A stretch of 64,000 nucleotides of DNA from positions 226,494-290,493 of the forward strand of contig JBAZSZ010000001.1 in NCBI GenBank assembly GCA_041662205.1, read 5' to 3'. This stretch comes from Minisyncoccota bacterium. GTDB taxonomy: Bacteria > Patescibacteriota > Minisyncoccia > Phycocordibacterales > UBA9973. Of this stretch, positions 1-33,547 are shown piece after piece; position 1 is the stretch's first letter; every line of letters begins with the position of its first letter. A program made the translations under genes and the position numbers. The notes beneath the pieces were generated by a model. That model worked only from the letters and a program-made list of their open reading frames with translations, did not search any database and was not told where the DNA came from.

Positions 1-2
1 CT

Positions 3-689
3 ATGGCAAAAACCAAGATAGCTGTTATAGACGATAGAGTAGATGCACGAGCACTTGTTGCTAGTGTCATTGATGATGCTATAACAAACCTTGAAATAAC
101 CGATAAATGGTCTGTTTTGGAAGCGTCTCCTTTGCCAAAACTCAAAGACTATCTTAATTGGGTTAGCGATAAAAAAGTTGGAATTTTAATCATTGATGAA
201 CGTCTTGGTGAGGTTCCTGATGATGCGGGTAAAGCCGCTAGTTACAAGGGCAGTGATCTGGTTAATTTATTGAGAAAACAATATAAGGATATGCCTATCT
301 ATGGCGTTACATCCTACCCTGATGATGGCTCTTTACAAAAACACTTTGCCTTATTTGATGAAGTTGTAAAAAGAGATGACTTTACTTCTAAAGCAGCCCA
401 ATATGTAGACCGATTCTTGAGAACGTATAAAAACTTTCTTGAAGATAATGAAAAAGAGCTAACCGAGCTTTCTGTCATCTCAAAGAAGATAGCTTTAGGT
501 AAGGCAAGTCGATCAGAAAAGAAAAGAGCCGAAGCCATTCAGAAAAACCTTGAAATTCCTGTTACAACTTTAGCGATTGGTAGTCGGAAAGAATGGATTG
601 ATGACTATGAAAAAGTCATTGCTGATCTCAAAAAAACTCAAAGCGATGTAGGAAAGTTTTTAAAAAAGAGCACTAAGAAAAAGAAATGA
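3..689 (+). CDS. CheY-like receiver (REC)-like domain protein with coiled-coil C-terminus; first gene of 3-gene overlapping cassette
   Basis: ATG at 3. N-terminus KIAVIDD..., acidic residue in GILIIDE, YGVTS and VVKRD resemble REC D/T/K positions. C-terminal half is charged/helical. Stop overlaps next start (ATGA at 686-689). Confidence 0.45.
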   Translation: MAKTKIAVIDDRVDARALVASVIDDAITNLEITDKWSVLEASPLPKLKDYLNWVSDKKVGILIIDERLGEVPDDAGKAASYKGSDLVNLLRKQYKDMPIYGVTSYPDDGSLQKHFALFDEVVKRDDFTSKAAQYVDRFLRTYKNFLEDNEKELTELSVISKKIALGKASRSEKKRAEAIQKNLEIPVTTLAIGSRKEWIDDYEKVIADLKKTQSDVGKFLKKSTKKKK

Positions 690-1333
690 AATGGACTTTA
701 ATTCAAAAAACACCCAACCCTACTATCGAAGCCTATGGATACGAGGACAAGCGAGTCAAAGAATTTTTAAGGCAAGAAGGCGGTCTTAGATGTGTATATT
801 GTGCTGTACATGAAAATGCTCTCGGTGGAGTACAAGGATTTCATGTTGAGCATTACAAACCAAAAAGACGATTCCCAGTATTAATTAATAGTCTCAATAA
901 TCTTTTTTACTCTTGTCCAATCTGTAATCGATTTAAATCTAGTGATTGGCCAGCAGAACCAAATAAGAAGTTTGGAAACAGTTCATATCCTAATCCTTCT
1001 CAAGTTGACTACGCTATTCTTTTTGAAGTTGACCAAAAGAGTGGTTCGGTTAACGGAAAATTTGTAGCTTCAAAGTATATAGTTGAACGTCTATATTTTA
1101 ACCGCCCACAGTTAATATTGGAACGTCGACAGTATTTTCTTGACGAGCAACTTAATTCGCTGAATGAAAAAAATAAAGACCTAATCAAGGAACTAAAAAC
1201 TAGGAGCGATAAGAGATCACTTGCATATTTAGCCAAACTTGCGGATTTTAGCATTAAGTTAAACGAGTTGTTTCTTACCCTAAAGAAAATACCATCTTAT
1301 GAGATTAGTGACGTAACTAAACAAAGATCATGA
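686..1333 (+). CDS. HNH family endonuclease
   Basis: HNH core: CVYCAVHE...GFHVEHYKPK...INSLNNLFYSCPICNRFK (His-Asn-Asn plus Cys ligands). Translationally coupled on both sides (ATGA overlaps). Confidence 0.7.
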   Translation: MKWTLIQKTPNPTIEAYGYEDKRVKEFLRQEGGLRCVYCAVHENALGGVQGFHVEHYKPKRRFPVLINSLNNLFYSCPICNRFKSSDWPAEPNKKFGNSSYPNPSQVDYAILFEVDQKSGSVNGKFVASKYIVERLYFNRPQLILERRQYFLDEQLNSLNEKNKDLIKELKTRSDKRSLAYLAKLADFSIKLNELFLTLKKIPSYEISDVTKQRS

Positions 1334-2958
1334 GAACTCGAAAGGAAAATGGTTCATACTACACCCCAGAAATCATCGCTGATTTTATTATTAAGCGAGT
1401 TTTTGATAATAAACACTACTTTCTGCCCAGAGACATAAGCGTATTAGAATCAAGCGTGGGAGACGGGATCTTCGTTCGCTCTCTGTTGAGTAGCCCCAAA
1501 GTTAAAACTAAGAAACTGACCCTAGAGGTGGTAGAGAGAGAAGGCAAAGAACTAAAGAAAGCCTTAGTCATTGCTGATGGACTAAAGTCAAAACAAACCA
1601 AAATTATTTCTCACCATAGAGATTATCTTGAGTTTGAAAAGACTAATAAAAATAAATACGACCTGATTATCGGTAATCCACCTTATATTAAAAAGAATCA
1701 TCTATCAAAAAAGCAGCTCAGTTTATGTGAAAATATTCATAAGAGAGCCAAACTATCTGATAAAAAAATAAAAAATATTTGGACAGCATTCCTTATAGGA
1801 GCAGTAGAATCACTCAATGAGAACGGTGTTATTTCTTTGGTCTTACCAGCCGAATTATTACAGGTCTCATATACGAAAGAGCTTAGAAATTATTTGCGTA
1901 ATACTCTTAATAAAATCGAGATATTTGCATTTAATGAGCTCGTATTCGAAGGCATTGAACAGGATGTAATAATCATTATTGGAACAAAATCATCAAAGAA
2001 TAAGGGCGTTTCTTTTTTTCAAGCAAATAAATTAGTTGATCTAAAGAAGCCTGATCTTATCCCGGGTAATACAAACATTGATCGAGAAACACTTGATAAA
2101 TGGACTAACTACATTTTATCTGAAAAAGAGCTTTCTTTTCTTGATAGCCTAAAGAAGAAGCTCAAAGAAGTGAGAGATTACTCAAAGGTGCAAGTTGGAA
2201 TTGTGACCGCTGTAAATAACTTTTTTATTATTAATGAAGATATTGTAAAAAACTTCAAGCTCAATTCTAACTGTACGCCAATTTTACAAAAAAGTTCTTT
2301 CGTCCCTGTGGCTTTAACGATAAGAAAAAATGATTTTTTCTCACTCAAGAAAAGAGGTAAGCCAGTTTTTCTGCTATCTCTTCCTGATAAACCAGAAGAT
2401 TTTCTATCTAAAAATGTTAAGAAGTATATAAAAAGTGGAGTGGATGAAGGAATTCATAAAGGTTACAAATGCTCGATCAGAAACCACTGGTATCACGTTC
2501 CAAGTGTTTGGCCTCCAGAAGGTGTCTTTATTAAAAGAAGTAATATCTTTCCAAGAATCATGACGAATGAGGCAAAAGTTAATGTCACTGATGCTTTTTA
2601 TCGTATATCAATGAAAGATGGTTATAATATTAAGAGCTTAGCATTTTCCTTCTGTAATTCTCTCAGCCTTATTTTTGCTGAGCTTGAGGGTAGATTTTAT
2701 GGAGGAGGCGTATTAGAGCTTATCCCAAACGAGTTTAAGAGTATACCAATACCTTACTCAGATGTTAAAGAAAAAGATTTTGAGTACCTGGATCGGATGT
2801 TAAGGAAAAAAGAACCAATTGACACTATCTTAGATTACACCGACAGAGTGATTTTAAAAAAAACACTGAAGTTAGCTAATAAAGATATTAAAAATATTAG
2901 GAAAATTTATTCCAAACTAGTTAATCGAAGAATGAAGGTTTCGCTCAATAAAAATTAA
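1330..2958 (+). CDS. gamma-class N6-adenine DNA methyltransferase (TaqI/Eco57I-like) with C-terminal target-recognition region
   Basis: Motif I VLESSVGDGIF then motif IV DLIIGNPPY, in gamma order. Roughly 350 aa C-terminal extension. ATGA overlap with upstream HNH gene. Confidence 0.8.
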   Translation: MRTRKENGSYYTPEIIADFIIKRVFDNKHYFLPRDISVLESSVGDGIFVRSLLSSPKVKTKKLTLEVVEREGKELKKALVIADGLKSKQTKIISHHRDYLEFEKTNKNKYDLIIGNPPYIKKNHLSKKQLSLCENIHKRAKLSDKKIKNIWTAFLIGAVESLNENGVISLVLPAELLQVSYTKELRNYLRNTLNKIEIFAFNELVFEGIEQDVIIIIGTKSSKNKGVSFFQANKLVDLKKPDLIPGNTNIDRETLDKWTNYILSEKELSFLDSLKKKLKEVRDYSKVQVGIVTAVNNFFIINEDIVKNFKLNSNCTPILQKSSFVPVALTIRKNDFFSLKKRGKPVFLLSLPDKPEDFLSKNVKKYIKSGVDEGIHKGYKCSIRNHWYHVPSVWPPEGVFIKRSNIFPRIMTNEAKVNVTDAFYRISMKDGYNIKSLAFSFCNSLSLIFAELEGRFYGGGVLELIPNEFKSIPIPYSDVKEKDFEYLDRMLRKKEPIDTILDYTDRVILKKTLKLANKDIKNIRKIYSKLVNRRMKVSLNKN

Positions 2959-4355
2959 TTCTTTAAGTAAAGTAGTACTTTCTTTTCTTCGAGTGCAAGC
3001 TTGCTTTTCAGACACCCTAGTAAATCTCTTTTCTCAAATATTGATCCTTCTACAAGAAGGTATTTGGTGTAATTTCTTATATCAGCATCCTTCACGTAGT
3101 ATTCCTCTTGAGCCTTGCCCATAATTCCGGAGTGGAATTTCTTATGCCTTTCAATTTCAACTTCCAATTTTTTCTTTAAACCGGATTTATCCAAATCAAT
3201 TTGATCAAGGATTTCTGTAAGTTGGTTTATTAATACTTTTTCTTCAATGTATCCCTCTTTGCAATTAATATCTCGGGCTCTAGTACAACCGTAATAAATA
3301 TATTTATTAACGGAACCGTCTTTGAGAGTTTTATATTTCTCTTGCCCTGTGATGCCAGAACCGCAACGGCCACATATAAACATTCTAGTAAAAGCAAACT
3401 CCTTATTTCTGCTGTGCGATTTTACTTGCAGGTGCAATTGTTTTTGCACGTCATCAAATAAATCTTTAGAAATTAATGGTATATGTTTACCTTGAAACCA
3501 TCTTCCACTCCCTTTGGGATACTCAAATGTTCCATAATAAAAATGGTTATTAAGAATTATGTAAATATTACTAAGAGTTAGAGGTTTGCCGGATTTTGTT
3601 TTAAATTTTAAATCATCCTTTAACCACCTGAATACTTTTCTTCCGCTCCACGCTTCATGTCCCACTTTCTTAAATACTTCTTTCATAACCTGTGCTCGAT
3701 CCGGGTCAACGAATACTTGGCATTTCTGATCTTTATTTTTAGCATTTAGATATCCAGTTGGTGCAACGCTCGGCCATAATCCCATTTCACATTGTGTTTT
3801 GAGTCCACGCTTTACATTTATACTTTTATTATCATTTTCAAGTTTAGCTTGGGATCCAAGAATCATTAAAAGGAATTTCTCATTTGGATTATTAGAAAAG
3901 TGTTGGCTGTATGTTTTTATTTCAACTAATTTCTTTTGGTCCAGTAAATCTACTATCGCACCAAGGTCTCCAGCATTCCTGCTGAGTCTGTCTGGATGCC
4001 ACACAAGAATTCCATTAAATTTTCCTTCTCGGATATCAATAAGCATTTTGTTAAAGACTGGTCGTTGCCCACAATCTTTTGCTGAATGAGATTCTCTATA
4101 AATATCCACGATCTGAAGATTGTCTCGAGTCGCGATCGTCAACATTTCTTTTATCTGGGAATCTATTGATAATGCCTGCTTTTCTTCGGCTTCGCTTGAT
4201 TTACGGGCATACAAACAGTACTTGATTCGTTCTTGTGTTACCGTAGCTGGAAAACCTATTTGGGCTCCATATTGCGTTGTCTTATCCATACGAACAACAA
4301 CATACTCTGAACAAAAATTAAGTCTAGTCATAAAGTGGATAACTTCACTACACAA
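2955..4355 (-). CDS. large serine recombinase (resolvase/integrase family); true start may be the internal Met (MDKTT..., ~4289)
   Basis: N-terminal catalytic motif LYARKSSEAEEKQALSIDSQ; HPDRLSRN; Cys-rich zinc-ribbon/recombinase domain (CGRCGSG...YYGC). Convergent 4-nt overlap with MTase stop. Confidence 0.85.
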   Translation of the reverse strand: MCSEVIHFMTRLNFCSEYVVVRMDKTTQYGAQIGFPATVTQERIKYCLYARKSSEAEEKQALSIDSQIKEMLTIATRDNLQIVDIYRESHSAKDCGQRPVFNKMLIDIREGKFNGILVWHPDRLSRNAGDLGAIVDLLDQKKLVEIKTYSQHFSNNPNEKFLLMILGSQAKLENDNKSINVKRGLKTQCEMGLWPSVAPTGYLNAKNKDQKCQVFVDPDRAQVMKEVFKKVGHEAWSGRKVFRWLKDDLKFKTKSGKPLTLSNIYIILNNHFYYGTFEYPKGSGRWFQGKHIPLISKDLFDDVQKQLHLQVKSHSRNKEFAFTRMFICGRCGSGITGQEKYKTLKDGSVNKYIYYGCTRARDINCKEGYIEEKVLINQLTEILDQIDLDKSGLKKKLEVEIERHKKFHSGIMGKAQEEYYVKDADIRNYTKYLLVEGSIFEKRDLLGCLKSKLALEEKKVLLYLKN

Positions 4356-4465
4356 TAATTTAAAAGGAAGCTAGGCTACACAAGCCTCCCAAAAGGAGGT
4401 ATAATCTCATTACAAGTTAATAAGCGACCTAACCCCTAAATTTATTTAAGGTATGGTCATAAAGT

Positions 4466-4507
4466 CGTATGAAGCATAAAGAACCCGTCATGGGGTCGCT
4501 TCATACG
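4466..4507. repeat. perfect 10-bp inverted repeat (cgtatgaagc / gcttcatacg) enclosing a 22-nt loop
   Basis: Read directly: 4466-4475 and 4498-4507 are reverse complements. Confidence 0.8.
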
Positions 4508-4508
4508 C

Positions 4509-4544
4509 CGTATAGGGAAACCTATATGAGAGGCTTCGGTCTCT
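4509..4544. other. two adjacent tetraloop hairpins (GAAA-capped 8-bp stem; cUUCGg-capped stem)
   Basis: cgtatagg-gaaa-cctatatg (4509-4528) and agaggc-ttcg-gtctct (4529-4544). Both are classic stable RNA tetraloops. Confidence 0.6.
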
Positions 4545-4558
4545 ACCCGTGATGGGCT

Positions 4559-4599
4559 TTTTGCGTCTTATCACCGGTATTTATCAATAAGACGCAAAA
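4559..4599. repeat. perfect 13-bp inverted repeat (ttttgcgtcttat / ataagacgcaaaa), 15-nt loop, just upstream of ORF 4609
   Basis: Read directly from sequence. Confidence 0.8.
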
Positions 4600-4608
4600 G
4601 AAAAAGTT

Positions 4609-4902
4609 ATGTCGAACTTGATCTATGAAGGAATATTTAAAGCAGTTCTGTTTGGTTTAACTCTATCAATTGCCGTTGCTGTTTTTTCAATAGCTAAACA
4701 AGTTGCGAAAAAAGAATTTATTGGAGTACCAACCTGGGAATTTATTTTAAGATTAATTTATTACTTAGGTGGAATAGCTCTCGCTTCTTTTTTACTCGCT
4801 GGTTTGATAGATAATGGCCACAATCAAATTTTAGCTGTAGCAACTTATTTATTTTTAATAATGTCGGGTGCATGGGTGTATGGCCTTCGCGCATCTAACT
4901 AA
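4609..4902 (+). CDS. small hydrophobic membrane protein, hypothetical
   Basis: 97-aa ORF with three predicted TM-like hydrophobic stretches. Confidence 0.4.
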   Translation: MSNLIYEGIFKAVLFGLTLSIAVAVFSIAKQVAKKEFIGVPTWEFILRLIYYLGGIALASFLLAGLIDNGHNQILAVATYLFLIMSGAWVYGLRASN

Positions 4903-4911
4903 TTTAATTTT

Positions 4912-5181
4912 ATGACCAAAAAACAATTTATTGTGTTGATAGTTGCGATCCTACTTATCCCTATAATGTACCTCTACAATGTTCGTTCTGTAAGTGCCGC
5001 TAGAAAAAGGTGCGCTGAATATGCGATGCCTTTAGTCGGAGCATCTTTCCCAGATGCTTTTGCCGAAAGCGGGTATAATTTTCCGCCGAAGAGAATCAAA
5101 GCAGAATACTCACAAGATTTCAAAGCCAATTATGATATATTCTTTAATTTCTGTATGGATCATTTTGAAGTTAAAGGCTAA
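4912..5181 (+). CDS. small protein with N-terminal TM/signal, hypothetical
   Basis: 89-aa ORF with hydrophobic N-terminus, 10 nt after the previous gene. Confidence 0.35.
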   Translation: MTKKQFIVLIVAILLIPIMYLYNVRSVSAARKRCAEYAMPLVGASFPDAFAESGYNFPPKRIKAEYSQDFKANYDIFFNFCMDHFEVKG

Positions 5182-5532
5182 TTATAGATTTTTCAATACG
5201 CCAGATTTAGCCAAAGCTTTGGTTGGTAATTTTTTGCTATATCTGGGACTTTTTTCACCTGGCTCTCTAGCTTTACCCATGGTAAGATCAAAGTACATCC
5301 TAGCTGATCTGACATCACCCTGAATTGCTTGTTTACGCAAAGAATCTAAAACAATTATCCCAATTTTTTTCTTTACTCTTCGTACCTGACCATGTCTTTG
5401 TTCTTTGACAACAATTTCTTTCAAAAAGAATTCATTCATAAATCTACGCTGTTCCTTGTAGGGTCGTCCAGCACCGGCACGAGCTCCACCATTCTTACGA
5501 CGGCCATCTTTGTTTTTCTTTGGAAAGCGCAT
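5182..5532 (-). CDS. phage terminase small subunit-like / basic DNA-binding protein
   Basis: Very basic N-terminus (KKNKDGRRKNGGARAGAGRP). Motif QAIQGDVRSARMYFDL resembles the TerS (Terminase_2-like) 'GNVxAAIFWLK' region. Confidence 0.4.
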   Translation of the reverse strand: MRFPKKNKDGRRKNGGARAGAGRPYKEQRRFMNEFFLKEIVVKEQRHGQVRRVKKKIGIIVLDSLRKQAIQGDVRSARMYFDLTMGKAREPGEKSPRYSKKLPTKALAKSGVLKNL

Positions 5533-5631
5533 TAAATTTGATTAAATATTTAGGTTAAATAATATCCTTATAATATAACACTTTTTATTTTCAAAAACGA
5601 CATATTCAATCTTTTTTAGACCCTTTTTGAC

Positions 5632-5648
5632 CCGACCTAGACAGGTCA
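5632..5648. repeat. 17-bp direct repeat copy 1 (ccgacctagacaggtca)
   Basis: Matches 6006-6022 with one mismatch. Confidence 0.7.
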
Positions 5649-5681
5649 GAGTCCAAGATTCGAAAGTGATATAATATACTA

Positions 5682-6005
5682 ATGCAAATAAAAGATATAT
5701 TTAACGTAGGTCCAGTGGGCTCAATGGGAAGACGATTGCAGTCATATTTAAATGGTGGCAATTGTCAGATTATTAATAAAACCTTAAATGAAGATCGAGT
5801 AGATTTTCGATTAAGAAGAGAATCTGATGGAATGGAGGGAGACTCATTTATCAAAGTTAGGGATGAATTTAAAGAAAGGAATAAGGAATTGCTAAACTGG
5901 ATTTTTGTAAATAAGGAAATAATGGGACTTACAATAGATCAGTTAGCTCAAATGGAAACAAACCTAAAGATGGAGATTTTTAACGGACATGTTCAAATTA
6001 AATAG
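5682..6005 (+). CDS. hypothetical protein flanked by 17-bp direct repeats
   Basis: 107-aa ORF. An extended -10 (tgatataat) lies ~10 nt upstream. Confidence 0.4.
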   Translation: MQIKDIFNVGPVGSMGRRLQSYLNGGNCQIINKTLNEDRVDFRLRRESDGMEGDSFIKVRDEFKERNKELLNWIFVNKEIMGLTIDQLAQMETNLKMEIFNGHVQIK

Positions 6006-6022
6006 CCGACCTAGACGGGTCA
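6006..6022. repeat. 17-bp direct repeat copy 2 (ccgacctagacgggtca)
   Basis: See copy 1 at 5632-5648. Confidence 0.7.
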
Positions 6023-6461
6023 TCTAGTTAATGTATTTAGTGCTAGAATATCCTTACGACATCTAGTGTGGTACGTACCAGACCAGACATCGCAGCAAAA
6101 ACGAGTGCAGCGATGTTTTTGATGGGAGAAATGAGCAAACTTCTTTGCTCATGGCTAGGAAGCGAAAAGCTTTTCATTATTTACTGAAAGTAAATTGAAA
6201 AGGTATACTGGTCATGTAATGACCGATAAGTGTACTCACGGTCCTAGTCTCCCAGCTTTGCGTGGAAGTTATCGTTTTTAGAAAAATTTTGAGCGACGCA
6301 AAGCGTCGCGTATGGAGTTTCCGCCAGAATTCGCCAAGGGTTTTTGAAATCCAAAAGAAGCGAGCGGGACGCGAGGCGGGGGTTCGAGCCAATCTTTTTA
6401 AGAAAATCTCTTTTAGCTTCACTCGAGATACATTGAGTTATTAGTTAATAAAAAAATATTT

Positions 6462-6869
6462 ATGAATCAAAGTATCTTAATAGCAATAATATCGACAGGC
6501 AGCACACTATTAGGTATTAGTGTTGGGTCTGTGTTAAATCATATTCTTGAAAGAAAAACTGTAAGAGGAAGGTTGTTTTTTGAAGCAAGAAAAATTTCTT
6601 ACGGAAAATTTATAGGTCTTACAAGAAACATAATACTAGAACCAGCAACAGAAAAAGATACATTAGAATTCAATAATATAGCTAGTGAGGCATTATTAAT
6701 TTCTAATTCTATTTTAAGAGAGGAGCTGGTTGATTTATGTAATTCAATAAGTCTTCTAAAGCGAACATCTTTGGGAGCTGGTTCTTCTTTTGATATAAAA
6801 GATCAAAATATTTTAATAGAAAAATTAAAGAAAATTGAACTTTCAATGACAAAAGAATTAAAAATATAA
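6462..6869 (+). CDS. hypothetical protein with N-terminal TM helix
   Basis: 135-aa ORF with hydrophobic N-terminus. Confidence 0.4.
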   Translation: MNQSILIAIISTGSTLLGISVGSVLNHILERKTVRGRLFFEARKISYGKFIGLTRNIILEPATEKDTLEFNNIASEALLISNSILREELVDLCNSISLLKRTSLGAGSSFDIKDQNILIEKLKKIELSMTKELKI

Positions 6870-6909
6870 AAACTAATTATTTTAGTAATCTAACCAACTT
6901 TTAAGTTAA

Positions 6910-7236
6910 ATGGTAAATTTTTTAAATAACCCTTGGACAATTGGAGTAGGCGTCACGGTTTTAGGAGGATTAATTCTATATTACCTTTTTGGCATAGGAA
7001 AACCTAAAAAAGAAAGTGCGGACACACGAAAAGCAGGTGTAATAGATGAAGGTATTAATTCAACTTATATAGATTGTGAAGGAGCTGGACCAGATGCAGG
7101 ATTAATAAGCAAGGGAAAGGGTTTGAAATCAATTAATAGTAAGTGGAGTTCAAGAGATGAGGTTGTGGAAGCTCAAAAACAAAGATTTGAAGAAAATAAG
7201 AAAAACCACTTTGACCCAAGAAATTCAAATAAATAG
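6910..7236 (+). CDS. hypothetical membrane-anchored protein
   Basis: 108-aa ORF with N-terminal TM and charged C-terminus. Confidence 0.4.
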   Translation: MVNFLNNPWTIGVGVTVLGGLILYYLFGIGKPKKESADTRKAGVIDEGINSTYIDCEGAGPDAGLISKGKGLKSINSKWSSRDEVVEAQKQRFEENKKNHFDPRNSNK

Positions 7237-7244
7237 CCCCACAG

Positions 7245-7259
7245 TAAACTGACAGAAAG
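7245..7259. repeat. 15-bp terminal inverted repeat, left copy (taaactgacagaaag)
   Basis: Exact reverse complement of 7611-7625. Confidence 0.8.
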
Positions 7260-7279
7260 TTACTAAAATCTATATTCGA

Positions 7280-7468
7280 TTAATAATTTAACCTATAGAC
7301 TTTAGCTCCAGGCGCAAGTGATTTAACTAAATTGATACCATTCAAAGCAGATTGTTCTGAAGTATAACTCTCAGCGCTATCAGCAATAATTTTGCCGTTT
7401 CCAGCATTTAGATGCCAACGATATTCACCTGACCTATCTTTATAAATTTCAAATTTTGCTTCGTGCAT
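7280..7468 (-). CDS. YegP/DUF1508-like small protein
   Basis: 62 aa; KFEIYKDRSGEYRWHL...NGKIIADS..Y resembles the UPF0339 (YegP) repeat unit. Confidence 0.5.
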   Translation of the reverse strand: MHEAKFEIYKDRSGEYRWHLNAGNGKIIADSAESYTSEQSALNGINLVKSLAPGAKVYRLNY

Positions 7469-7514
7469 ATATTTAAATTCTTTAAAGATTATTCTTCTAA
7501 CGGGGAAATCGACC

Positions 7515-7575
7515 TTAGAGTGGGTTCCCGGACAAAAACCTATTTACATCAAGTTTCTGTCCGGAACCCTCTAAG
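7515..7575. other. long imperfect hairpin (~23-bp stem, 15-nt loop)
   Basis: cttagagtgggttcccggacaaaaa / tttctgtccggaaccctctaag pair with 2-3 mismatches or bulges. Confidence 0.7.
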
Positions 7576-7610
7576 TGATTGATCCACACAAAAAGGGGGT
7601 AGGAGTTTTT

Positions 7611-7625
7611 CTTTCTGTCAGTTTA
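7611..7625. repeat. 15-bp terminal inverted repeat, right copy (ctttctgtcagttta)
   Basis: Reverse complement of 7245-7259. Confidence 0.8.
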
Positions 7626-7785
7626 TTAAGGAGCTATCTTGATATTATATTACTAGATTTAACTATTACAAGATGCTCGAGACGCGTCGTTTTGGTATAA
7701 TAAAATTGTTAGCAATCACCTTATGGGGTAAGGAGCCAATTGGTTCTAACTCGAGTCTCCCAGCAAATTCTAGTAGAATAAATAC

Positions 7786-8304
7786 ATGAGCAGTAGATTC
7801 ATTTGTGAAAATAATAAATATAAAATTGGAGGTGAAAAAGAAGATACAATCTATCTACCAGTATCTTTTAGTAATCTACCAGAAGAAATAAAAGTTCAAG
7901 AACAAACTTTGTATTTATTTAACTCTTTTCATGTCAGTTTAATTTATATTGGAAAAATAATTGAGAAATATAATATCACAATTCCTGATTTTTTAAATAA
8001 AATAGAAAATGATTTTTGTGAATTTATAAAGACAAATAATGTAGAAGTTGTTCGTTATAACAATGAATTCAAGTTTGTTGCAAGAAATGATAAAAAAACT
8101 GTAGTTGTTATGTGTGAAGTCTCAAACTTAAACAAATTCTTCGATTTAATAAACCAAAAGTATGAGCTACCTCTCAAGTATATGCCAACCCATGTTACTT
8201 TGTATGGTAATTTAAAAAACAAACCTGGCATTTGGTTAATGAATGAAGACGATATTAAAAACTTTACTATCCCTATTGAAAACCCGATAGGTCGTTTACT
8301 TTAG
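7786..8304 (+). CDS. hypothetical protein
   Basis: 172-aa ORF, AT-rich, no recognisable motifs. Confidence 0.45.
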   Translation: MSSRFICENNKYKIGGEKEDTIYLPVSFSNLPEEIKVQEQTLYLFNSFHVSLIYIGKIIEKYNITIPDFLNKIENDFCEFIKTNNVEVVRYNNEFKFVARNDKKTVVVMCEVSNLNKFFDLINQKYELPLKYMPTHVTLYGNLKNKPGIWLMNEDDIKNFTIPIENPIGRLL

Positions 8305-8370
8305 TTCCAACTTCGCGTCATTATTTTTGTTTGAATTAAGGTTCTAGGTTTGCAACAAATACCCAAGCTA

Positions 8371-8400
8371 TTGACAAATAGCTATTAGGTAGTGTATAAT
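8371..8400 (+). promoter_or_regulatory. near-consensus sigma70 promoter (TTGACA-N18-tgTATAAT)
   Basis: TTGACA at 8371-8376 and TATAAT at 8395-8400 with TG at -15/-14. Located ~70 nt upstream of ORF 8470. Confidence 0.6.
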
Positions 8401-8469
8401 CCCAATAGAAATTAGCCTTTTCTGGTGGGGCTTAAAATAACATCAGAGGTTTTTTGAAAGGAAAGAATC

Positions 8470-8931
8470 ATGGAAAAGAAGAAGTTCTACGTATGTAGCA
8501 ACAACGGAGTTACAGCTGTTGTTACAGAGCAGACGCATAAGGATTTACAGAAGTATTGTGCTATTGGTTCTTGGTTTGATGAGACTGATGCAGAAAAACT
8601 GTACGAAGAGCGCAGGCTTCGCAGGACAGCAATAAGTTCTGCACTTGGGCATTTGTGTACTCCAACCTTTACGTTCACCCGTCCTGAACGTGCGAGTGTT
8701 TCCCCTTGGTTTACGGGCGACTCTGAGTTGTTTTGGGCACTAACTAAACACGTTGAGAACAACGGTGGAGTTTTATTGGACGGGAGTTGTTATGTCCCGT
8801 TCAGTAATGGAAGCGAGGTTGGGTTACATGGACATGAGGCATTGAAAGATGAACTCAGCTACGTAACCACAGAACAGCAGTTCCAGGAAACTTTCGGAAT
8901 CTCCATCTCGGAATTGATTAACAAAAAGTAG
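8470..8931 (+). CDS. hypothetical protein, visibly more GC-rich than surroundings (likely horizontally acquired)
   Basis: 153-aa ORF with its own consensus promoter and a strong terminator. Codon usage looks G/C-richer than neighbours (GC not computed). Confidence 0.5.
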   Translation: MEKKKFYVCSNNGVTAVVTEQTHKDLQKYCAIGSWFDETDAEKLYEERRLRRTAISSALGHLCTPTFTFTRPERASVSPWFTGDSELFWALTKHVENNGGVLLDGSCYVPFSNGSEVGLHGHEALKDELSYVTTEQQFQETFGISISELINKK

Positions 8932-8943
8932 AGATCCCTATCA

Positions 8944-8991
8944 CCCCGTATTAGACAAAGCCCCGTGCTCGTCTATACGGGGTTTTGTTTT
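8944..8991 (+). terminator. rho-independent terminator
   Basis: ccccgtat(tagac)...(gtcta)tacgggg stem followed by ttttgtttt. Confidence 0.7.
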
Positions 8992-9019
8992 GTAATATTA
9001 TTTTTAGTACCATAGAAGA

Positions 9020-9268
9020 ATGTATTATCTTTATATTCTTGAATGTGCTGACAAAACTCTATATACTGAAATTACCACAGATTTAAAAAGAAGGGCTGTA
9101 GAACATAATAATACAAGGTTGGGAGCAAAATATACTGTTTCTAGAAGACCGGTAAAGATTGTTTATTCTAAGAAATTCAAAAATAGATCTACCGCTTCAA
9201 AAGAAGAAGCTAGAATTAAAAAATTAAGGAAAAATAAAAAATTAGAATTAATAAATAATGGAAAGTAA
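9020..9268 (+). CDS. GIY-YIG nuclease domain protein (YhbQ/UPF0213-like)
   Basis: YYLYILECADKTLYTEIT...RRAVEHNN matches the GIY-YIG core. Confidence 0.7.
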   Translation: MYYLYILECADKTLYTEITTDLKRRAVEHNNTRLGAKYTVSRRPVKIVYSKKFKNRSTASKEEARIKKLRKNKKLELINNGK

Positions 9269-9671
9269 TTTTATGATTGAAGACATTTATCCAGAAGAAT
9301 GGCAAGAAACACGAGGTATTTATTCACCAGCCAAAAAGATTGATCTTGGAAGTACTTTTTTAATATTTGTGTCGGGTCAACAAGTTGAGAAAAATGAAAA
9401 CCACGAAGCTATAACGGACGATATTGAGGAACAAACAGAACTCGTATTTCAGGCTATTGAGAAAATATTAAAAGCTGCTAATGCTTCAATGGATGATGTA
9501 GTAAAAGCCCAGATATTTTTAACTAACATAAGTGACCTTCCAAAGGTTTCAGCCATCCGTGACAAATGGTTTGCGAAAAGTAAGCCAGCAAGCACCTTGG
9601 TTGAGGTTAAGGGAATGACTCGTAAGGGTGCGAAGGTTGAAATTGAAGTAACTGCGATTATTAAGAAATAA
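9258..9671 (+). CDS. RidA/YjgF/L-PSP family protein
   Basis: FVSGQ...VKAQIFL...PASTLVEV...VEIEVTA is the characteristic RidA pattern. Confidence 0.7.
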   Translation: MESNFMIEDIYPEEWQETRGIYSPAKKIDLGSTFLIFVSGQQVEKNENHEAITDDIEEQTELVFQAIEKILKAANASMDDVVKAQIFLTNISDLPKVSAIRDKWFAKSKPASTLVEVKGMTRKGAKVEIEVTAIIKK

Positions 9672-9685
9672 TTATAATAAAAAAA

Positions 9686-10405
9686 ATGCGAAAAGAAATT
9701 CAATTAACAACTAAAGACGGACATATTATTTATGGAACATTCGATTCAGCCCAAAAGAGTAAAACTCTATTGATTTTTGTTCATGGATTTACGGGACATA
9801 GAAATGAACACCATTATTTTAACGCTGCTTCTTTTTTCCCAGAAAAAGGTTTTGATACATTCAGGTTTGATTTTTATGGAGGTAAGTTGAACGCACGTTT
9901 GCTAAGTAAAGTTTCTTTACAGGAACACATTTCTGACTTAAAACTTGTTATTGACACTTTCAAAGAAAAATACGATGACATCATTCTGATTGGACATAGT
10001 CTAGGATGTATAGTTGTATTAAATACTGATTTATCAGATATTTCAAAAATTGTTTTGTGGGATCCTTCAAGTAAATTAAAAAATTTAAAAGAAAAAAATG
10101 CTGAATATAACGCTGATTTAGATAAATATATTTTTAATTCAAGATTAAGTATAATTGTTTCTAAAGAATTAGTTAAGGAGTGGCAAGATGTTAATATAGG
10201 TAATTTAGCTGAAAAAATAAATGTCCCTTGTAAATTTATTTTTGCTGGAAATCATAATAAACTTGAAGTATGGAAACCATTTTTAAGTAAAATAAAGGTG
10301 GCTAATGAATTTGCAATAGTTGAAGGTGCTAGTCATGTATTTATTGAAGAAGGCGTTGAACAAAAACTTTTCGAAGAAACCCTTAATTACATTAAGGTAC
10401 AATAA
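9686..10405 (+). CDS. alpha/beta-fold hydrolase (serine esterase/lipase-like)
   Basis: FVHGFTGH and nucleophile elbow GHSLG. Confidence 0.7.
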   Translation: MRKEIQLTTKDGHIIYGTFDSAQKSKTLLIFVHGFTGHRNEHHYFNAASFFPEKGFDTFRFDFYGGKLNARLLSKVSLQEHISDLKLVIDTFKEKYDDIILIGHSLGCIVVLNTDLSDISKIVLWDPSSKLKNLKEKNAEYNADLDKYIFNSRLSIIVSKELVKEWQDVNIGNLAEKINVPCKFIFAGNHNKLEVWKPFLSKIKVANEFAIVEGASHVFIEEGVEQKLFEETLNYIKVQ

Positions 10406-10409
10406 AACT

Positions 10410-10877
10410 ATGAAACTGATCCTTGGTTCAGATTTTAGTTTTTTATTCAAATACGGTTACGGTCTAACTGGTATTCCTAAAGACCAAATAAAAATTGGAT
10501 ACATCACTACCGCCTCAAATGCTTTTCCTAATAGGGATTATATAAAAATCTTTAAAAAACAAATAGAAGAAAATGGTTATAATATTGAGGAAATTGATAT
10601 TGAAAAATTAAAAGGTACACCGTTTCAAAAAAGAGTTTGGGTAGCGTTAACTAAAATAAAAAAGGGAAGTACTATTACATACAAAGAACTTGCAAAAAAG
10701 ATAGGTAGACCTAACGCTGTGAGGGCAGTAGCAAATGCTGTTAGCTATAATCCTTTACCCGTTTCTATTCCTTGTCATAGAGTAATCCGAAGTGATGGAA
10801 CTCTCGGTGGATATTCGGGTAGGGGTGGCATAAAAATGAAACGTGCCCTACTTGTTAAGGAAGGAGTAAAATTATAG
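10410..10877 (+). CDS. ogt: methylated-DNA--protein-cysteine methyltransferase (Ogt/MGMT)
   Basis: C-terminal IPCHRVI active-site motif and NAVSYNPLP helix. The ATG at 10410 is chosen over the overlapping 10320 start. Confidence 0.8.
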   Translation: MKLILGSDFSFLFKYGYGLTGIPKDQIKIGYITTASNAFPNRDYIKIFKKQIEENGYNIEEIDIEKLKGTPFQKRVWVALTKIKKGSTITYKELAKKIGRPNAVRAVANAVSYNPLPVSIPCHRVIRSDGTLGGYSGRGGIKMKRALLVKEGVKL

Positions 10878-10906
10878 TTGTAAAATAAAAATGCTATACT
10901 TTAAAT

Positions 10907-12115
10907 ATGAAAAATAATTTAAAGATAACCATCATAGTACTTGCTTTTATTATCATTGGTGTTTTTATTTATTATTACAAAACAAAAATTACACCCTTTA
11001 ATGAAGGAACTCCAACGACAACGGAAAGCTCAATAATTAGCTTACCTGGTTTTCAAATACCGGAAGGTTTTTTATTTAGTATTTTTGCTAAGAATGTTCC
11101 TGGAGCTCGAGCGATAGAGCTCGACCCCAAAGGTCGTGTCGTAGTAAGTGAGACAGGCGAAGGCAAGATAGTCATGCTTTCTGACACAAATAATGATTTT
11201 ATTACTGACGAACAGAAAACACTTTTGAGTGGTTTGGAAAAACCACATGGTCTAGCGTTTAATTGTAATAATCTTAATGATGCATGTTTCTTATATGTCG
11301 CTGAGGCTAGCACTTTATCTAGATATTCTTATGATGCCCAAACTTTAATTCTCGGACCCAAAGAAAAACTTATGGAGATAAGCTCTTCTTTAGGAGATAG
11401 ACATTTTACTCGTTCACTCTTATTTTTACCTTCACCAAACGAGAATACGTTACTCGTTTCTGTCGGGTCTTCATGTGATGTCTGTCATGAAAAAGATGCT
11501 GAGCACGCGACGGTATTGTCTTATAATATAAAAACGGGGAAAAAAGAAGTGTATGCGAAGGGGCTTCGTAATTCAGTATTTATGACCCTAAATCCTGTTT
11601 CTGGTAAAGTTTTTGCCACGGAAATGGGTCGCGACAATCTAGGTGATAATCTACCACCAGATGAAATAAATATTATTGAAAAAGGAAATAATTATGGTTG
11701 GCCTATTTGTTATGGTAAAAATATTCATGACACCAAGTTTGATAAAAATACATATATCAGAAACCCATGTATGGAACCGTTCGAGACTTCTTCTTTTATA
11801 GATTTACAAGCACACTCTGCGCCACTTGGTCTTTCTTTTATACCTAAAGTTGGATGGCCAAAAGAATACCAACACAATCTCTTGGTTGCTTATCATGGTT
11901 CTTGGAATCGTAGTATACCCACTGGCTATAAAATAGTTCGCTTAAAAATGGATGCGCAAGGAAAATATCTTGGCGTTGAAGACTTTATTACTGGTTGGAT
12001 GACAAATGAAGGAAAGAAAATTGGTCGTCCCGTAGATATAGAAATTCTACCCAATGGGACTGCCTATATCTCAGACGATAGTTCTGGAGCTATTTATGTT
12101 CTACGTGTTAAATAA
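10907..12115 (+). CDS. PQQ-dependent sugar (glucose/sorbosone) dehydrogenase-like beta-propeller protein, membrane-anchored
   Basis: N-terminal TM; NNYGWP motif; PHGLAF; propeller-like repeats. Confidence 0.6.
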   Translation: MKNNLKITIIVLAFIIIGVFIYYYKTKITPFNEGTPTTTESSIISLPGFQIPEGFLFSIFAKNVPGARAIELDPKGRVVVSETGEGKIVMLSDTNNDFITDEQKTLLSGLEKPHGLAFNCNNLNDACFLYVAEASTLSRYSYDAQTLILGPKEKLMEISSSLGDRHFTRSLLFLPSPNENTLLVSVGSSCDVCHEKDAEHATVLSYNIKTGKKEVYAKGLRNSVFMTLNPVSGKVFATEMGRDNLGDNLPPDEINIIEKGNNYGWPICYGKNIHDTKFDKNTYIRNPCMEPFETSSFIDLQAHSAPLGLSFIPKVGWPKEYQHNLLVAYHGSWNRSIPTGYKIVRLKMDAQGKYLGVEDFITGWMTNEGKKIGRPVDIEILPNGTAYISDDSSGAIYVLRVK

Positions 12116-20397: not shown

Positions 20398-23319
20398 ATG
20401 ATTTCCCGTATATATGTGGCACCTAAAGGAAAAACTGATTTCATTAATTCTTACTTAATTTCACATAAGTTGGGAGTCGAAAAAATCCTAAAAATAGCTC
20501 AAGCTCTGACGAATCCAATCCTCGAAGAATTTTCTATAAATAAATTTCCCGATGTCGGACATCTGGCATCAAAATTTACTTATGCTATTGAAATAGGTTT
20601 TAAACCCGGGGTCACAGACAATGTAGGTCATACAGTGGAGGAAACTATTCTGGATTTATTGCATCTGAAAGATAAAAATGATTTAGCAGTCTACACTTCT
20701 AAAATTTATTTGGTTTCAAATTCTAAATTGGAAGATGTAGAAAAAATTGCTCTTACACTACACAATCCTTTAATTGAACGTTCTTATATCGCTAGTTTTG
20801 CTGAAATCAAAAAAGAAGGACTACCTTTAAAAGTTCCAAAAGTTATTCTCAAGAAAAATACCCCTGTCATTAATGTTTCTCTAAAAGTGCCTGATGAGGA
20901 ACTTGTAAAAATCGGTAAAGAAGGGATTTTGGGCAAGACAAACAGTAAGATAAAAGAAAGAAGGGGCCCGCTCGCTTTAGACTTGGCTTCAATGAAAGTA
21001 ATCCAAGAACATTTTAAAAAATTAAAAAGAGATCCGACTGATATTGAACTCGAATCTCTAGCGCAAACATGGTCTGAGCATTGCAAGCACACTATTTTTG
21101 CCAATCCTATCGAAGACATCAAGGATGGTTTGTATAAAACATATATAAAAGGCGCGACAAATTTAATACGCAAACAAAAAGGGAAGAAAGATTTTTGTGT
21201 CTCAGTGTTTAGTGATAATTCCGGTGGGATTATTTTTGATAAAGATTATTTAATAACGCATAAAGTTGAAACACACAATAGCCCTTCGGCTCTTGATCCA
21301 TTTGGAGGAGCTATCACGGGAATTGTGGGGGTGAATCGAGATACTATAGGCTTTGGCCTAGGCGCAAAACCAGTAGCCAATGCTTATGGTTTTTGTTTTG
21401 GTAATCCAGAAGACAAAAGGGCTCTTTTCCGCGATAAAAATTTAAGTCAAAAAATGCTTTCACCTAAACGCATAATGGAAGGAGTAGTAAAAGGAATAAA
21501 CGTAGGCGGAAATTGTTCTGGGATACCGACGCTTTCTGGTTTTGTTCATTATGATGAAAGGTATAGAGGCAAACCCTTGGTTTTTGCCGGAACAGTAGGA
21601 TTAATTCCAAGAAATTTACCCGCCTCTGGAGGGAATAATCGACCATCACACGAAAAACAGGCGCAAGTAGGAGATCACATTGTGGTAGTCGGAGGTAGAG
21701 TAGGGCTCGATGGCATCCATGGAGCAACTTTTTCTTCTGTAGTGATGGATTCGAGTTCTCCGGCTACTGCGGTGCAAATCGGTGACCCAATTACTCAAAA
21801 AAAATTAAGCGATGCAATAATCAAAGAAGCGCGAGATCTGAATTTATATAACAGTATCACAGACAATGGCGCAGGGGGGATTTCTTGTTCGGTTGCGGAA
21901 ATGGCAAAAGAATGCGGAGGAGCAAAAGTTTCGTTAGAAAAAGTTCCGTTAAAATACCCCGATCTTCGTCCGTGGGAAATTTGGATTTCAGAATCACAAG
22001 AACGTATGACTTTGTCAGTACCCAAGAAAAAATGGGAAGTATTTAAAAAATTAATGAATAGTCGGGGAGTAGAAGCGACTGTGATAGGTGAATTCACAAG
22101 TTCTGGAAAATGTATTGTGGATTATAGAAGTAAAAAGATAATGGATATCCCTATGGATTTTTTGCACGATGGCTTGCCGGAACAAAATTTAGTTACAGAA
22201 CCATTTATTTACAAAAATAATGAAATTAAACCTGAAACAAAAAAATCTTTTACTGAGATTTTGGAAAATTTACTTAGCAGTAAAAACATTAGTGGATTTT
22301 CCTTTATTTCCGAGCAGTATGATCACGAAGTGCAAGGATCTTCTGTTTTAAAACCTCTTTCCGGACGGGGTCGTATCAATACCGAAGCGCAAGTTTTAAA
22401 GCCAGTTTTAAATTCAAATAAAGGAGCTGTTTTATCTTCTAGCACTTATCCTTCTTATGGAGATATCAGCACTTATCACATGGCTGCTTGTGCGATAGAT
22501 ACTGCTATCAGAAATACTCTTTGCGCTGGTGGAACACTTTCGCATTTAGCTATTCTAGATAATTTCTGCTGGTGTTCATCTAATGATCCAAAACGCTTAG
22601 CTCAACTCATAGACTCAGTAAAGGCTTGCTACGACTACGCTGTAGGATACGGAACACCATTTATTTCTGGTAAAGATAGTATGTTTAATGACTTCAAAGG
22701 TTATGATGAAAAGGGTAATCCTGTGGCCGTCTCTATTCCACCGACACTTCTCATCTCAGCGATTAGCGTCATGTCTGATTTAAATAAAACTATTTCTCCT
22801 GAATTTAAAAATACAGGTGATGTGATTTATCTATTGGGAGAAACGAATGATGAACTAGGCGGAGGAGAGTATTTAAAAATGTTTGGCGTAGTAGGGGAAG
22901 ATGTACCCAAAGTAGATTTAAAGAAAAATATAAAAATATATCGTGCGTTAGAAAAAGTAATTCAAAAAGGATTAATTGCTTCAGCCATATCTCTTAATTC
23001 TGGCGGACTTGCGATTGCTCTCTCCAAAGCCTGTGTCGGAGGAATGGTAGGATGCAAAGTCTCCCTTGATCATATAGGAAATTCCTTTGGGATAGATGTA
23101 AAATTATTTTCTGAAAGCCAGGGAAGAGTTTTAATTTCTGTGTCTCCTCGAAATATCTCAGAATTTGAAAAAATAATAAAAAATATTCCTTATACTAAGT
23201 TAGGCAAAATAACTAAAGATGAGAAATTGATAATCACAAATGGTAAAAGTAAAGTGATAGAAACGAATGTTAAAAAATTACACAATGCTTACCATAAATT
23301 TTCTAATTCACAAAAATGA
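20398..23319 (+). CDS. purL: phosphoribosylformylglycinamidine synthase subunit PurL with ~190-aa N-terminal extension
   Basis: Canonical small-PurL core starts near residue ~190 (LAQTWSEHCKHTIF). The repeated AIRS-like domains are present. Confidence 0.9.
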   Translation: MISRIYVAPKGKTDFINSYLISHKLGVEKILKIAQALTNPILEEFSINKFPDVGHLASKFTYAIEIGFKPGVTDNVGHTVEETILDLLHLKDKNDLAVYTSKIYLVSNSKLEDVEKIALTLHNPLIERSYIASFAEIKKEGLPLKVPKVILKKNTPVINVSLKVPDEELVKIGKEGILGKTNSKIKERRGPLALDLASMKVIQEHFKKLKRDPTDIELESLAQTWSEHCKHTIFANPIEDIKDGLYKTYIKGATNLIRKQKGKKDFCVSVFSDNSGGIIFDKDYLITHKVETHNSPSALDPFGGAITGIVGVNRDTIGFGLGAKPVANAYGFCFGNPEDKRALFRDKNLSQKMLSPKRIMEGVVKGINVGGNCSGIPTLSGFVHYDERYRGKPLVFAGTVGLIPRNLPASGGNNRPSHEKQAQVGDHIVVVGGRVGLDGIHGATFSSVVMDSSSPATAVQIGDPITQKKLSDAIIKEARDLNLYNSITDNGAGGISCSVAEMAKECGGAKVSLEKVPLKYPDLRPWEIWISESQERMTLSVPKKKWEVFKKLMNSRGVEATVIGEFTSSGKCIVDYRSKKIMDIPMDFLHDGLPEQNLVTEPFIYKNNEIKPETKKSFTEILENLLSSKNISGFSFISEQYDHEVQGSSVLKPLSGRGRINTEAQVLKPVLNSNKGAVLSSSTYPSYGDISTYHMAACAIDTAIRNTLCAGGTLSHLAILDNFCWCSSNDPKRLAQLIDSVKACYDYAVGYGTPFISGKDSMFNDFKGYDEKGNPVAVSIPPTLLISAISVMSDLNKTISPEFKNTGDVIYLLGETNDELGGGEYLKMFGVVGEDVPKVDLKKNIKIYRALEKVIQKGLIASAISLNSGGLAIALSKACVGGMVGCKVSLDHIGNSFGIDVKLFSESQGRVLISVSPRNISEFEKIIKNIPYTKLGKITKDEKLIITNGKSKVIETNVKKLHNAYHKFSNSQK

Positions 23320-25073: not shown

Positions 25074-25078
25074 AAAAA

Positions 25079-27225: not shown

Positions 27226-27236
27226 AAATAAATATT

Positions 27237-31983: not shown

Positions 31984-32008
31984 AATATATCGTGTATACT
32001 ACCATATT

Positions 32009-33535: not shown

Positions 33536-33547
33536 AAAAATAAATTT

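Follow-up and report, generated by a model that had tools for sequence, protein, structure and literature searches.

LOOT (Rfam RF03000) is known as a metagenome-derived RNA motif (PMC5737381, PMC7779021), in which about 43 base pairs and six helices have been counted (PMC7657543) and which was given two additional covarying pairs in Rfam 15 (PMC11701678). In Rfam, the family is classed as a small RNA (sRNA). LOOT has been an orphan since 2017: it stands in Rfam with strong covariation, and our searches of the searchable literature returned nothing on its function, host or genomic context. In the original description the motif is said to lie far from open reading frames (ORFs) in ocean metagenomes, and its name reportedly alludes to these ORF-poor ocean surroundings. 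The loci assembled here come mostly from groundwater, sediment and wastewater or engineered systems and thus differ from that setting. In this study we analyze a 64,000-nucleotide stretch of DNA (“the window”) from a Minisyncoccota bacterium of the Patescibacteriota (contig JBAZSZ010000001.1, positions 226,494 to 290,493), where positions 4426-4544 of the forward (+) strand carry a copy of LOOT beside the gene of a large serine recombinase, and we discuss the anatomy of this RNA, the mobile islands on which it resides and its possible mode of action.

Among described regulatory RNAs, the preQ1-I, SAM-II, fluoride and ZTP riboswitches resemble LOOT in their architecture. Like LOOT, they place a compact domain in a 5' leader, employ a loop-to-3'-tail pseudoknot strand that is shared with an alternative helix, and harbour a U-run or start-codon-proximal sequence in the switching region. 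In contrast to these riboswitches, LOOT has an unrelated fold and sequence (no Rfam match), its downstream genes are heterogeneous and the pseudoknot itself abuts the U-run. With the catalogued family (PMC5737381) the window copy shares the helices P1-P4, the CCUAA/AUGG loop and the GAAA loop, end to end. To the RNA catalogued as an sRNA, it adds a promoter, a 5' leader, a pseudoknot strand with a U-run, alternative helices and a constant downstream ORF. On balance, we consider it fairly probable that LOOT is a promoter-proximal, switch-like, cis-acting 5' leader rather than a free-standing sRNA.

The comparison set comprised about 100 related loci. Relatives of the recombinase were sought in a species-representative genome set, and these recombinase-first loci were searched with a covariance model built from nine LOOT copies. 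The LOOT-first search used a DNA pattern derived from the leader and P1 alone, and was run against IMG/VR and metagenome contigs. An earlier pattern made from P1 and the adjoining linker had returned 120 matches in viral contigs, all of them by chance, a fault that was cured by adding the 5' leader. The final pattern yielded 4 true LOOTs and 13 chance matches in IMG/VR, all 13 in coding sequence, and at least 75 true LOOTs in metagenome contigs (75 of 80 among the matches listed).

A first-pass annotation, made from the letters of the window alone, had proposed a structured RNA next to the recombinase start, to be checked with Rfam, RNAfold and the covariation of homologues. All three checks were run and returned a family match, a stable fold and covarying helices. 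The Rfam scan assigned 4426-4544 (+) to LOOT with 85.8 bits, compared to a gathering score of 46.4 (E 2e-16), over model positions 1-121 of 121; no other family was matched in the 64-kb window. Judged by its sequence, this segment belongs to the known family. The RNA 4412-4625 folds with -70.6 kcal/mol (z = -5.7; none of 200 shuffles was equally stable), and the shorter RNA 4426-4563 gives a folding z of -4.5. Together with the family match, these values place the features well outside what chance would produce. Across 35 sequences, 95.8% of the cells of the LOOT core are paired and the covariation score reaches 0.86, as compared to 0.21 in shuffles and at most 0.13 in a slid-partner control.

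The core consists of four helices. P1 (4426-4458, +), a hairpin taken from the Rfam alignment and absent from the first-pass list, is followed by P2 (4466-4475 / 4498-4507, +), a 10-bp helix with a 22-nucleotide (nt) loop that was recovered by the repeat finder and the Rfam alignment alike. P3 (4509-4528, +) is an 8-bp hairpin with the GAAA loop 4517-4520, and P4 (4529-4544, +) a 6-bp hairpin with the UUCG loop 4535-4538, both evident from the sequence and the Rfam alignment. The 10-bp perfect inverted repeat of the first-pass annotation thus corresponds, at unchanged coordinates, to P2, and its GAAA-capped hairpin with the UUCG-capped hairpin directly behind corresponds to P3 and P4. In the 35 sequences, P2 is paired in 99.4% of the cells with both-side changes at 9 of 10 pairs, and P3 in 99.3% with both-side changes at all 8 pairs. 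The GAAA loop of P3 is at least 90% conserved; the P4 loop of other loci is GCAA, GAAA or UUCG, and GNRA in many of them.

P1 contains an internal loop, in which CCUAAC (4428-4433) lies opposite UAUGG (4452-4456); CCUAA and the A-GG of the opposite strand are invariant across 34-35 sequences. The 11-nt GAAA-tetraloop receptor motif, found in group I and group II introns and in RNase P, reads CCUAAG/UAUGG. The P1 loop appears to resemble this receptor, and the GAAA loop of P3 may dock into it as a tertiary contact. LOOT shares with the intron and RNase P contacts an invariant P3 GAAA, a P1 CCUAA(A/C) opposite (U/C)AUGG and a 4-nt versus 3-nt asymmetry, whereas it lacks the G-U pair that closes the canonical receptor (C and U stand there in the window), and docking is deduced from this likeness.

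The LOOT core does not end the conserved structure. The first-pass annotation had noted a repeated motif at 4483-4495 and 4545-4557. The recurrence is real, with ACCCGTCATGGG (4483-4494) returning as ACCCGTGATGGG (4545-4556) at 11 of 12 identical positions, but it is not a repeat as such, since the two copies are the two strands of a long-range helix. The 5' strand CCCGUCAU (4484-4491, +) lies in the P2 loop and pairs with the 3' strand GUGAUGGG (4549-4556), the pairs running from C4484-G4556 to U4491-G4549; the 3' strand, a C and the U-run 4558-4562 together occupy 4549-4562 (+). In every locus the nine bases that precede the U-run pair with the P2 loop. Among 34 recombinase-first loci, cognate duplexes average -12.6 kcal/mol versus -6.7 kcal/mol for non-cognate ones, a difference equalled in 0 of 20000 permutations. 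In the structure-blind MAFFT alignment A6, the 8-bp helix is 92.3% paired versus 72% in shuffles, its covariation is 0.63 versus 0.25 (slid controls at most 0.25), and both sides change at 6 of 8 pairs. The result was replicated in 54 distinct LOOT-first sequences among the matches listed (-12.0 versus -6.9 kcal/mol, 0 of 10000 permutations); since this set was chosen on leader and P1 only, the test is independent of the selection. The sequence types are diverse and include, besides CCCGUCAU/GUGAUGGG, the pairs CUGCUAGU/GCUAGCAG, CUCCUAAU/GUUAGGAG, GGUCUCAU/GUGGGACC and GACUCCUCG/CGAGGAGUC. The helix sits outside the Rfam model, which stops at P4.

The tail that carries the pseudoknot strand is itself conserved. 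T135 and T137 are invariant, CUUU(U/G)UG is conserved in 34 of 34 aligned sequences, and across modules the consensus is GGYGNGGRGC-UUU(U/G)UG. A consensus scan found no + strand intrinsic terminator at the tail. The local hairpin in front of the conserved U-run has only 3-4 bp and is poorly conserved (59% paired); the helix in direct contact with this U-run is that of the long-range pseudoknot. Separate small local hairpins formed by the two motif copies were likewise considered and discarded as weak, at the same 59% pairing.

The same tail strand has a second partner. In the alternative hairpin P5 (4545-4578, +), ACCCGUGAU (4545-4553) pairs with AUCACCGGU (4570-4578) at 8 of 9 positions, with the U-run inside the loop. 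Cognate P5 duplexes average -12.1 kcal/mol versus -8.5 kcal/mol for non-cognate ones (0 of 20000 permutations equal), and the hairpin is seen in single-sequence folds, too. The LOOT-first set, among the matches listed, gave -9.6 versus -7.4 kcal/mol (0 of 10000), and about half of its loci have the hairpin. Because both use 4549-4553, P5 and the pseudoknot are mutually exclusive. The 3' arm of P5 is situated past the U-run, and its covariation implies that at least some transcripts extend that far.

A third helix is peculiar to the window and its closest relatives. The 13-bp perfect inverted repeat UUUUGCGUCUUAU / AUAAGACGCAAAA (4559-4571 / 4587-4599, +), already listed in the first-pass annotation and found again by the repeat finder, joins the U-run region to positions -22 to -10 of the ATG at 4609 and is present in the minimum-free-energy fold. 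A U-run follows on neither strand, which sets it apart from canonical terminators. Its conservation is confined to the loci L141, L152, L226 and L265, with zero compensatory changes. Pairing of the 5' leader with the U-run or the start region, which occurs in the minimum-free-energy fold of the window, was set aside as a candidate: both partners are of low complexity and conserved, which places this pairing beyond covariation testing. The tail also contains a 12-codon ORF, MGFLRLITGIYQ (4552-4590), that starts within the pseudoknot 3' strand and stops 19 nt before the ATG at 4609. Peptides similar to MGFLRLITGIYQ occur in L141, L226 and L265, and in L265 the stop overlaps the downstream start codon. 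This short ORF is probably incidental; it is conserved in no loci but those of the window's subfamily, and the codons that vary fall on the arm of P5.

Upstream of the core lies a sigma-70-type promoter, TACACA-17-TATAAT (4377-4405, +), which agrees with the consensus at 10 of 12 positions and places the predicted transcription start at about 4412. From there the conserved 5' leader ACAAGUUAAUAAGC (4412-4425, +), with the consensus ACAAnU(G/U)AAUA in most loci, leads directly into LOOT; via this leader, the predicted promoter ends up about 14 nt upstream of P1. Of 65 independent loci, 58 have a TAnnAT hexamer that precedes LOOT position 1 by about 29 nt. Inside the promoter spacer lies the palindrome CCTCC-CAAAA-GGAGG (4385-4399), whose arms, read by eye, vary and yet stay complementary across loci (TACCA/TGGTA, GCGC/GCGC, TAGCC/GGCTA). 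This palindrome has the look of an operator; alternatively, transcription may begin at a point 5' of about 4412. Still further upstream, the block 4333-4376 (+) contains GTGGATAAC (4335-4343), CTACACAATA (4348-4357) and AAGCTAGG (4368-4375), motifs that recur 5' of LOOT in a subset of loci; to regard them as operators or as a divergent promoter is a guess.

Promoter, leader and RNA travel together. BLAST alignments delimit a module of about 270 nt (4333-4602) that is common to the window, L152, L141 and L226; in the latter three loci LOOT lies 1-6 kb from the recombinase. The alignments run in the order -10 hexamer, leader, LOOT, tail and start codon of the next gene. Module homology begins at 4333-4335, and with L141 and L226 it stops at the downstream start codon, where the cargo changes. 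The homology on the recombinase side with L121, the closest recombinase locus and one without a nearby LOOT, ends at 4344. At this meeting point of the recombinase and module homologies, GTCTAGTCATAAAGT (4322-4336), in the 5' region of the recombinase, shares 13 of 15 positions with GTATGGTCATAAAGT (4451-4465), which comprises the 3' strand of P1 and the linker of LOOT; the likeness could be due to chance.

Downstream, LOOT is coupled to a gene on the same strand. In the window this is the ORF 4609..4902 (+), which begins 65 nt after LOOT and encodes a predicted small membrane protein of 97 amino acids (aa) with no family match. A co-oriented ORF, defined by an ATG, a length of at least 50 aa and a start within 210 nt of LOOT, is found in 82 of 84 loci (32/33 and 50/51) at a median distance of about 60 nt, while the baseline at random positions is 44%. 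Fifty-nine of the 82 downstream proteins contain a hydrophobic segment, and some are zinc-ribbon membrane proteins. The start region is linked to the RNA in yet another way: in 30 of 81 distinct loci the P2 3' strand (10-11 nt) finds a perfect complement in a segment that precedes the start codon by 3-10 nt. The 5' strand of P2 is thus present a second time in these loci, and this second copy can compete for the P2 3' strand. The copy differs in sequence from locus to locus and pairs preferentially with its own P2 (cognate -8.5 versus non-cognate -4.3 kcal/mol, 0 of 10000 permutations). In the window subfamily (L141, L152, L226, L265) the 13-bp helix takes its place. RNAfold favours the native LOOT plus P5, with the start region open. 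The notion that the block forms the 5' leader of the membrane-protein gene, put forward in the first-pass annotation, gains support from both the constancy of the co-oriented ORF and the pairing of the pre-ATG segment with P2 in many loci.

The promoter-proximal position, the alternative helices, the co-oriented ORF and the start-proximal copy of P2 together make LOOT look like a switch-like leader. Two marks of a cis-acting leader were found in the comparison, namely a 5' position on the same strand and mutually exclusive helices that reach the U-run and start region. In the mechanism that we propose, LOOT would be transcribed rightwards from 4377-4405, starting at about 4412 and divergently from the recombinase gene, and would serve as the folded sensor domain of the leader. 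The pseudoknot next to the U-run would decide between read-through and a transcript that is ended there or left as a short LOOT RNA. In the read-through mRNA, access to the start region of the accessory gene, here the 97-aa membrane protein at 4609, would depend on the alternative helices, namely P5, the P2 mimic and, in the case of the window, the 13-bp helix. A more specific proposal, which we put forward tentatively and hold to be possible rather than probable, is that LOOT represents a new class of sensor RNA, be it a riboswitch or a factor-binding leader, which gates termination and start-codon access of membrane and defence genes of the islands through a tetraloop-receptor-stabilised fold and a loop-to-tail pseudoknot.

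Several points weigh against a switch-like leader. The start, the end and the read-through of the transcript are all deduced from the DNA. Rfam assigns LOOT to the sRNAs, and the conserved U-run after the pseudoknot could simply be the terminator of such a free-standing RNA. The downstream genes are heterogeneous (membrane proteins, zinc-ribbon proteins, restriction-modification in L142) and mostly unannotated, unlike coherent riboswitch regulons. The pre-ATG copy is missing in about 60% of the loci, including the window, and is unpaired in the minimum-free-energy folds of RNAfold; the 13-bp helix is without covariation support. Furthermore, the permutation tests ignore phylogeny, though many distinct sequence types back each helix, and most of the compared loci are metagenome-assembled genomes (MAGs) or metagenome contigs.

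These reservations lead to the alternative that LOOT is a free-standing sRNA of about 150 nt (approximately 4412-4562), which ends at the pseudoknot and U-run as its terminator and acts in trans or as a structural or protein-binding RNA of the island or phage, the ORF being a mere neighbour. The Rfam type agrees with this view, as do the U-run directly after the pseudoknot 3' strand, conserved in all sequences, the compact fold, whose tetraloop and receptor-like loop would suit a stable particle, and the position of LOOT next to terminase and integrase genes. However, the sequence past the U-run covaries with the tail (P5) and, in 30 of 81 loci, with P2, which requires read-through transcripts; moreover, an independent sRNA gene would not be expected to be followed, in 82 of 84 loci, by a co-oriented ORF at a steady spacing of about 60 nt. 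A free-standing sRNA thus seems unlikely, if far from absurd, and we prefer the cis-acting leader.

The elements that carry LOOT shed light on the remaining alternatives. The recombinase of the window is encoded at 2955..4289 (-), with a probable ATG start at 4289 in an ORF that stays open to a TTG at 4355. The protein comprises the Pfam domains Resolvase, Recombinase and Zn_ribbon_recom and matches the PHROG integrase family phrog_95 (E 1e-64). It has more than 569 relatives with 58-83% identity, almost all in MAGs of the Patescibacteria (candidate phyla radiation). Of 80 genome loci, 25 have LOOT within 6 kb of the recombinase. In 11 of these it lies just upstream in divergent orientation, the arrangement of the window; in 10 it is upstream and divergent at 2-6 kb, in 1 upstream on the same strand and in 3 downstream of the recombinase. 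It lies within 10 kb of the recombinase in 9 of 33 IMG/VR viral-contig loci, and all four true LOOT-first matches from IMG/VR have the recombinase within 5 kb. Among the matches listed, 39 LOOT-first metagenome loci offered at least 1.5 kb of upstream sequence, and 23 of these contain a serine recombinase, which belongs to the window's family in 13 (at least 55% identity) and to others in 10 (23-37% identity); 2 loci have only a ParB-methylase and 14 none of these genes.

Clustering of the genes around LOOT, combined with PHROG and Pfam annotation, revealed a recurring set: a ParB-N6/N4 methylase, the small terminase, the large terminase (phrog_38, E 8e-81) and the integrase, along with further methylases, restriction-modification systems, an OLD-family nuclease and S24 repressor-like genes. 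Methylase, small terminase, large terminase and recombinase usually follow one another in this order on one strand. The opposite strand carries the LOOT cassette, which is placed in the gap from large terminase to recombinase or else upstream of the methylase. By gene content, the LOOT cassette appears to be cargo of phage-like serine-integrase islands that reside mostly in Patescibacteria MAGs. In 15 of 40 loci, a tRNA-Gln gene is found on the opposite strand 0.1-5.5 kb past the recombinase stop, and other serine-recombinase islands with LOOT adjoin tRNA-Tyr or tmRNA likewise. These tRNA and tmRNA genes beyond the 3' end of the recombinase make that side the likely side of integration, and in the window this end points away from LOOT.

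The phage-like nature of these islands invites a comparison with the put RNA of phage HK022, likewise a promoter-proximal structured leader on a temperate-phage-like element, which acts on its own transcript. LOOT could accordingly be a cis-acting leader for processive antitermination, or another modification of RNA polymerase, which lets transcription pass terminators into the cargo. This would fit its promoter-proximal position, the phage-like elements and the fact that it always heads a co-oriented gene array, some of which are several kb long and end at the recombinase. Yet, LOOT and put are dissimilar in sequence and fold, no other Rfam family was matched here, and neither the pre-ATG copy of P2 nor the two alternative partners of the tail would be explained by antitermination, which we consider improbable.

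Even less credit can be given to the idea, voiced in the first-pass annotation, that the block is the attachment (att) site or boundary of the serine-recombinase element and that its inverted repeats are recombinase half-sites. Serine integrase genes often adjoin attP, and the window indeed has LOOT abutting the 5' end of the recombinase, as do 11 of the 25 genome loci with LOOT. In addition, the L121 homology breaks at 4344, where the homology of the LOOT module starts, and some LOOT loci show no recombinase in the available flanks. The nearness to an integrase gene and the inverted repeats are also what LOOT has in common with the attP/attB sites of phiC31 and Bxb1. In contrast to those sites, the repeats of LOOT covary as RNA helices, vary among near-identical recombinases and shift relative to the gene: the distance between module and recombinase ranges over 0.1-6 kb, both sides of the gene and both orientations occur, and in the window the module has island-type sequence on both of its own sides. 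The arms of P2, P5 and the tail vary widely between loci whose recombinases are 58-83% identical, and they stay complementary to their RNA partners, including a third partner for the tail, behaviour that a binding site of such recombinases would not be expected to show; the GAAA, UUCG and receptor-like loops are features of RNA. Finally, the integration side at the recombinase 3' end, together with the presence of LOOT on islands with different targets, argues against LOOT as a host attB or att site. The loci L175 and L306, in which LOOT abuts tRNA-Gln, had suggested that LOOT is the host attB beside this gene; this was rejected as a general case, because other recombinase families carry LOOT next to tRNA-Tyr, tRNA-Glu or tmRNA. 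A search of positions 1-12000 for direct repeats marking the island ends gave nothing convincing, and no tRNA or tmRNA gene was found in the window. A distal island boundary may nevertheless lie near some LOOT cassettes.

A structured non-coding RNA beside a recombinase gene on a mobile element also calls to mind the bridge RNA of IS110 and other recombinase-adjacent guide RNAs. The recombinase considered here, however, belongs to the serine integrases and has recombinase and zinc-ribbon DNA-binding domains of its own; kilobases often separate it from LOOT, the variable loops of LOOT pair within their own transcript, and pairing with flanking DNA was not identified. That the structure acts as single-stranded DNA, e.g., as an origin or recombination hairpin, is scarcely credible. 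Covariation alone cannot separate RNA from single-stranded DNA, as Weinberg et al. 2017 pointed out for other motifs (PMC5737381), but the conserved promoter at a fixed distance, the strictly fixed orientation to the downstream ORF, the RNA-specific stabilising GNRA, UUCG and receptor-like loops and the tolerance of G-U but not A-C pairs on the LOOT strand all speak for RNA.

The surroundings of the module fit into this picture of an island. Downstream of the recombinase gene lie an Eco57I-type N6 methylase with its C-terminal domain (1330-2958), directly adjacent, and further on an HNH protein (686-1333) and a receiver-domain-like protein (3-689); the three genes in 3-2958 look like restriction-modification or defence cargo. 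To the right of LOOT are small ORFs for which no family was matched, as well as a 116-aa DUF5681 protein (5182-5532, -), which runs towards the LOOT cassette in convergent orientation, fills the small-terminase-like position of related loci and may be a remnant of the packaging module. Elsewhere, in the IMG/VR contig 3300001594_001499 (L206, 253-16475), LOOT heads a co-oriented zinc-ribbon membrane protein and a type III restriction-modification array, and other parts of this island encode AAA_21 ATPases, an OLD-family nuclease and an S24 repressor-like protein. LOOT cassettes may mark hotspots of defence genes.

A further stretch of the window, 6006-6430, is poor in ORFs, richer in GC and dense in hairpins (z of 6006-6300: -4.1, + strand; -5.2, - strand). 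Positions 6007-6165 are about 74% identical to L141 1-158, a segment that itself lies about 1.4 kb downstream of the L141 LOOT, and weaker nhmmer matches occur in L123, L307, L157 and L337; 6006-6430 has no Rfam match. It may constitute a second conserved non-coding element of the same island family. A 17-nt repeat, CCGACCTAGAC(A/G)GGTCA, itself a small hairpin, occurs at 5632-5648 and 6006-6022 and brackets the ORF 5682-6005. The genes beyond about 9.2 kb have a chromosomal appearance, among them a complete cluster for de novo purine and GMP synthesis (20398-35047; purL, purF, purD, purA, guaB, guaA, purH), a PBP2 gene (40264-41991) and a bactofilin-like gene; the purine cluster and PBP2 are unusual for Patescibacteria. 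Judged from this gene content alone, the host may come from a different phylum, in which case the island would have moved between phyla.

As a member of a known family, the LOOT copy of the window is in itself of low novelty, while the added anatomy and context are new with respect to the Rfam model and the searchable papers. New for LOOT are its setting on phage-like serine-integrase islands, mostly of Patescibacteria, and a fuller anatomy that extends beyond the Rfam model and includes a promoter, a leader, a pseudoknot, a U-run and alternative helices. New, too, is a hypothesis that can be tested by mutation, namely, that LOOT is a switch-like leader ahead of accessory genes. These findings suggest that the Rfam model and the sRNA label of LOOT merit revisiting. 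If the reading as a sensor RNA holds true, LOOT would be among the first regulatory RNAs tied to mobile elements of the uncultured Patescibacteria radiation.

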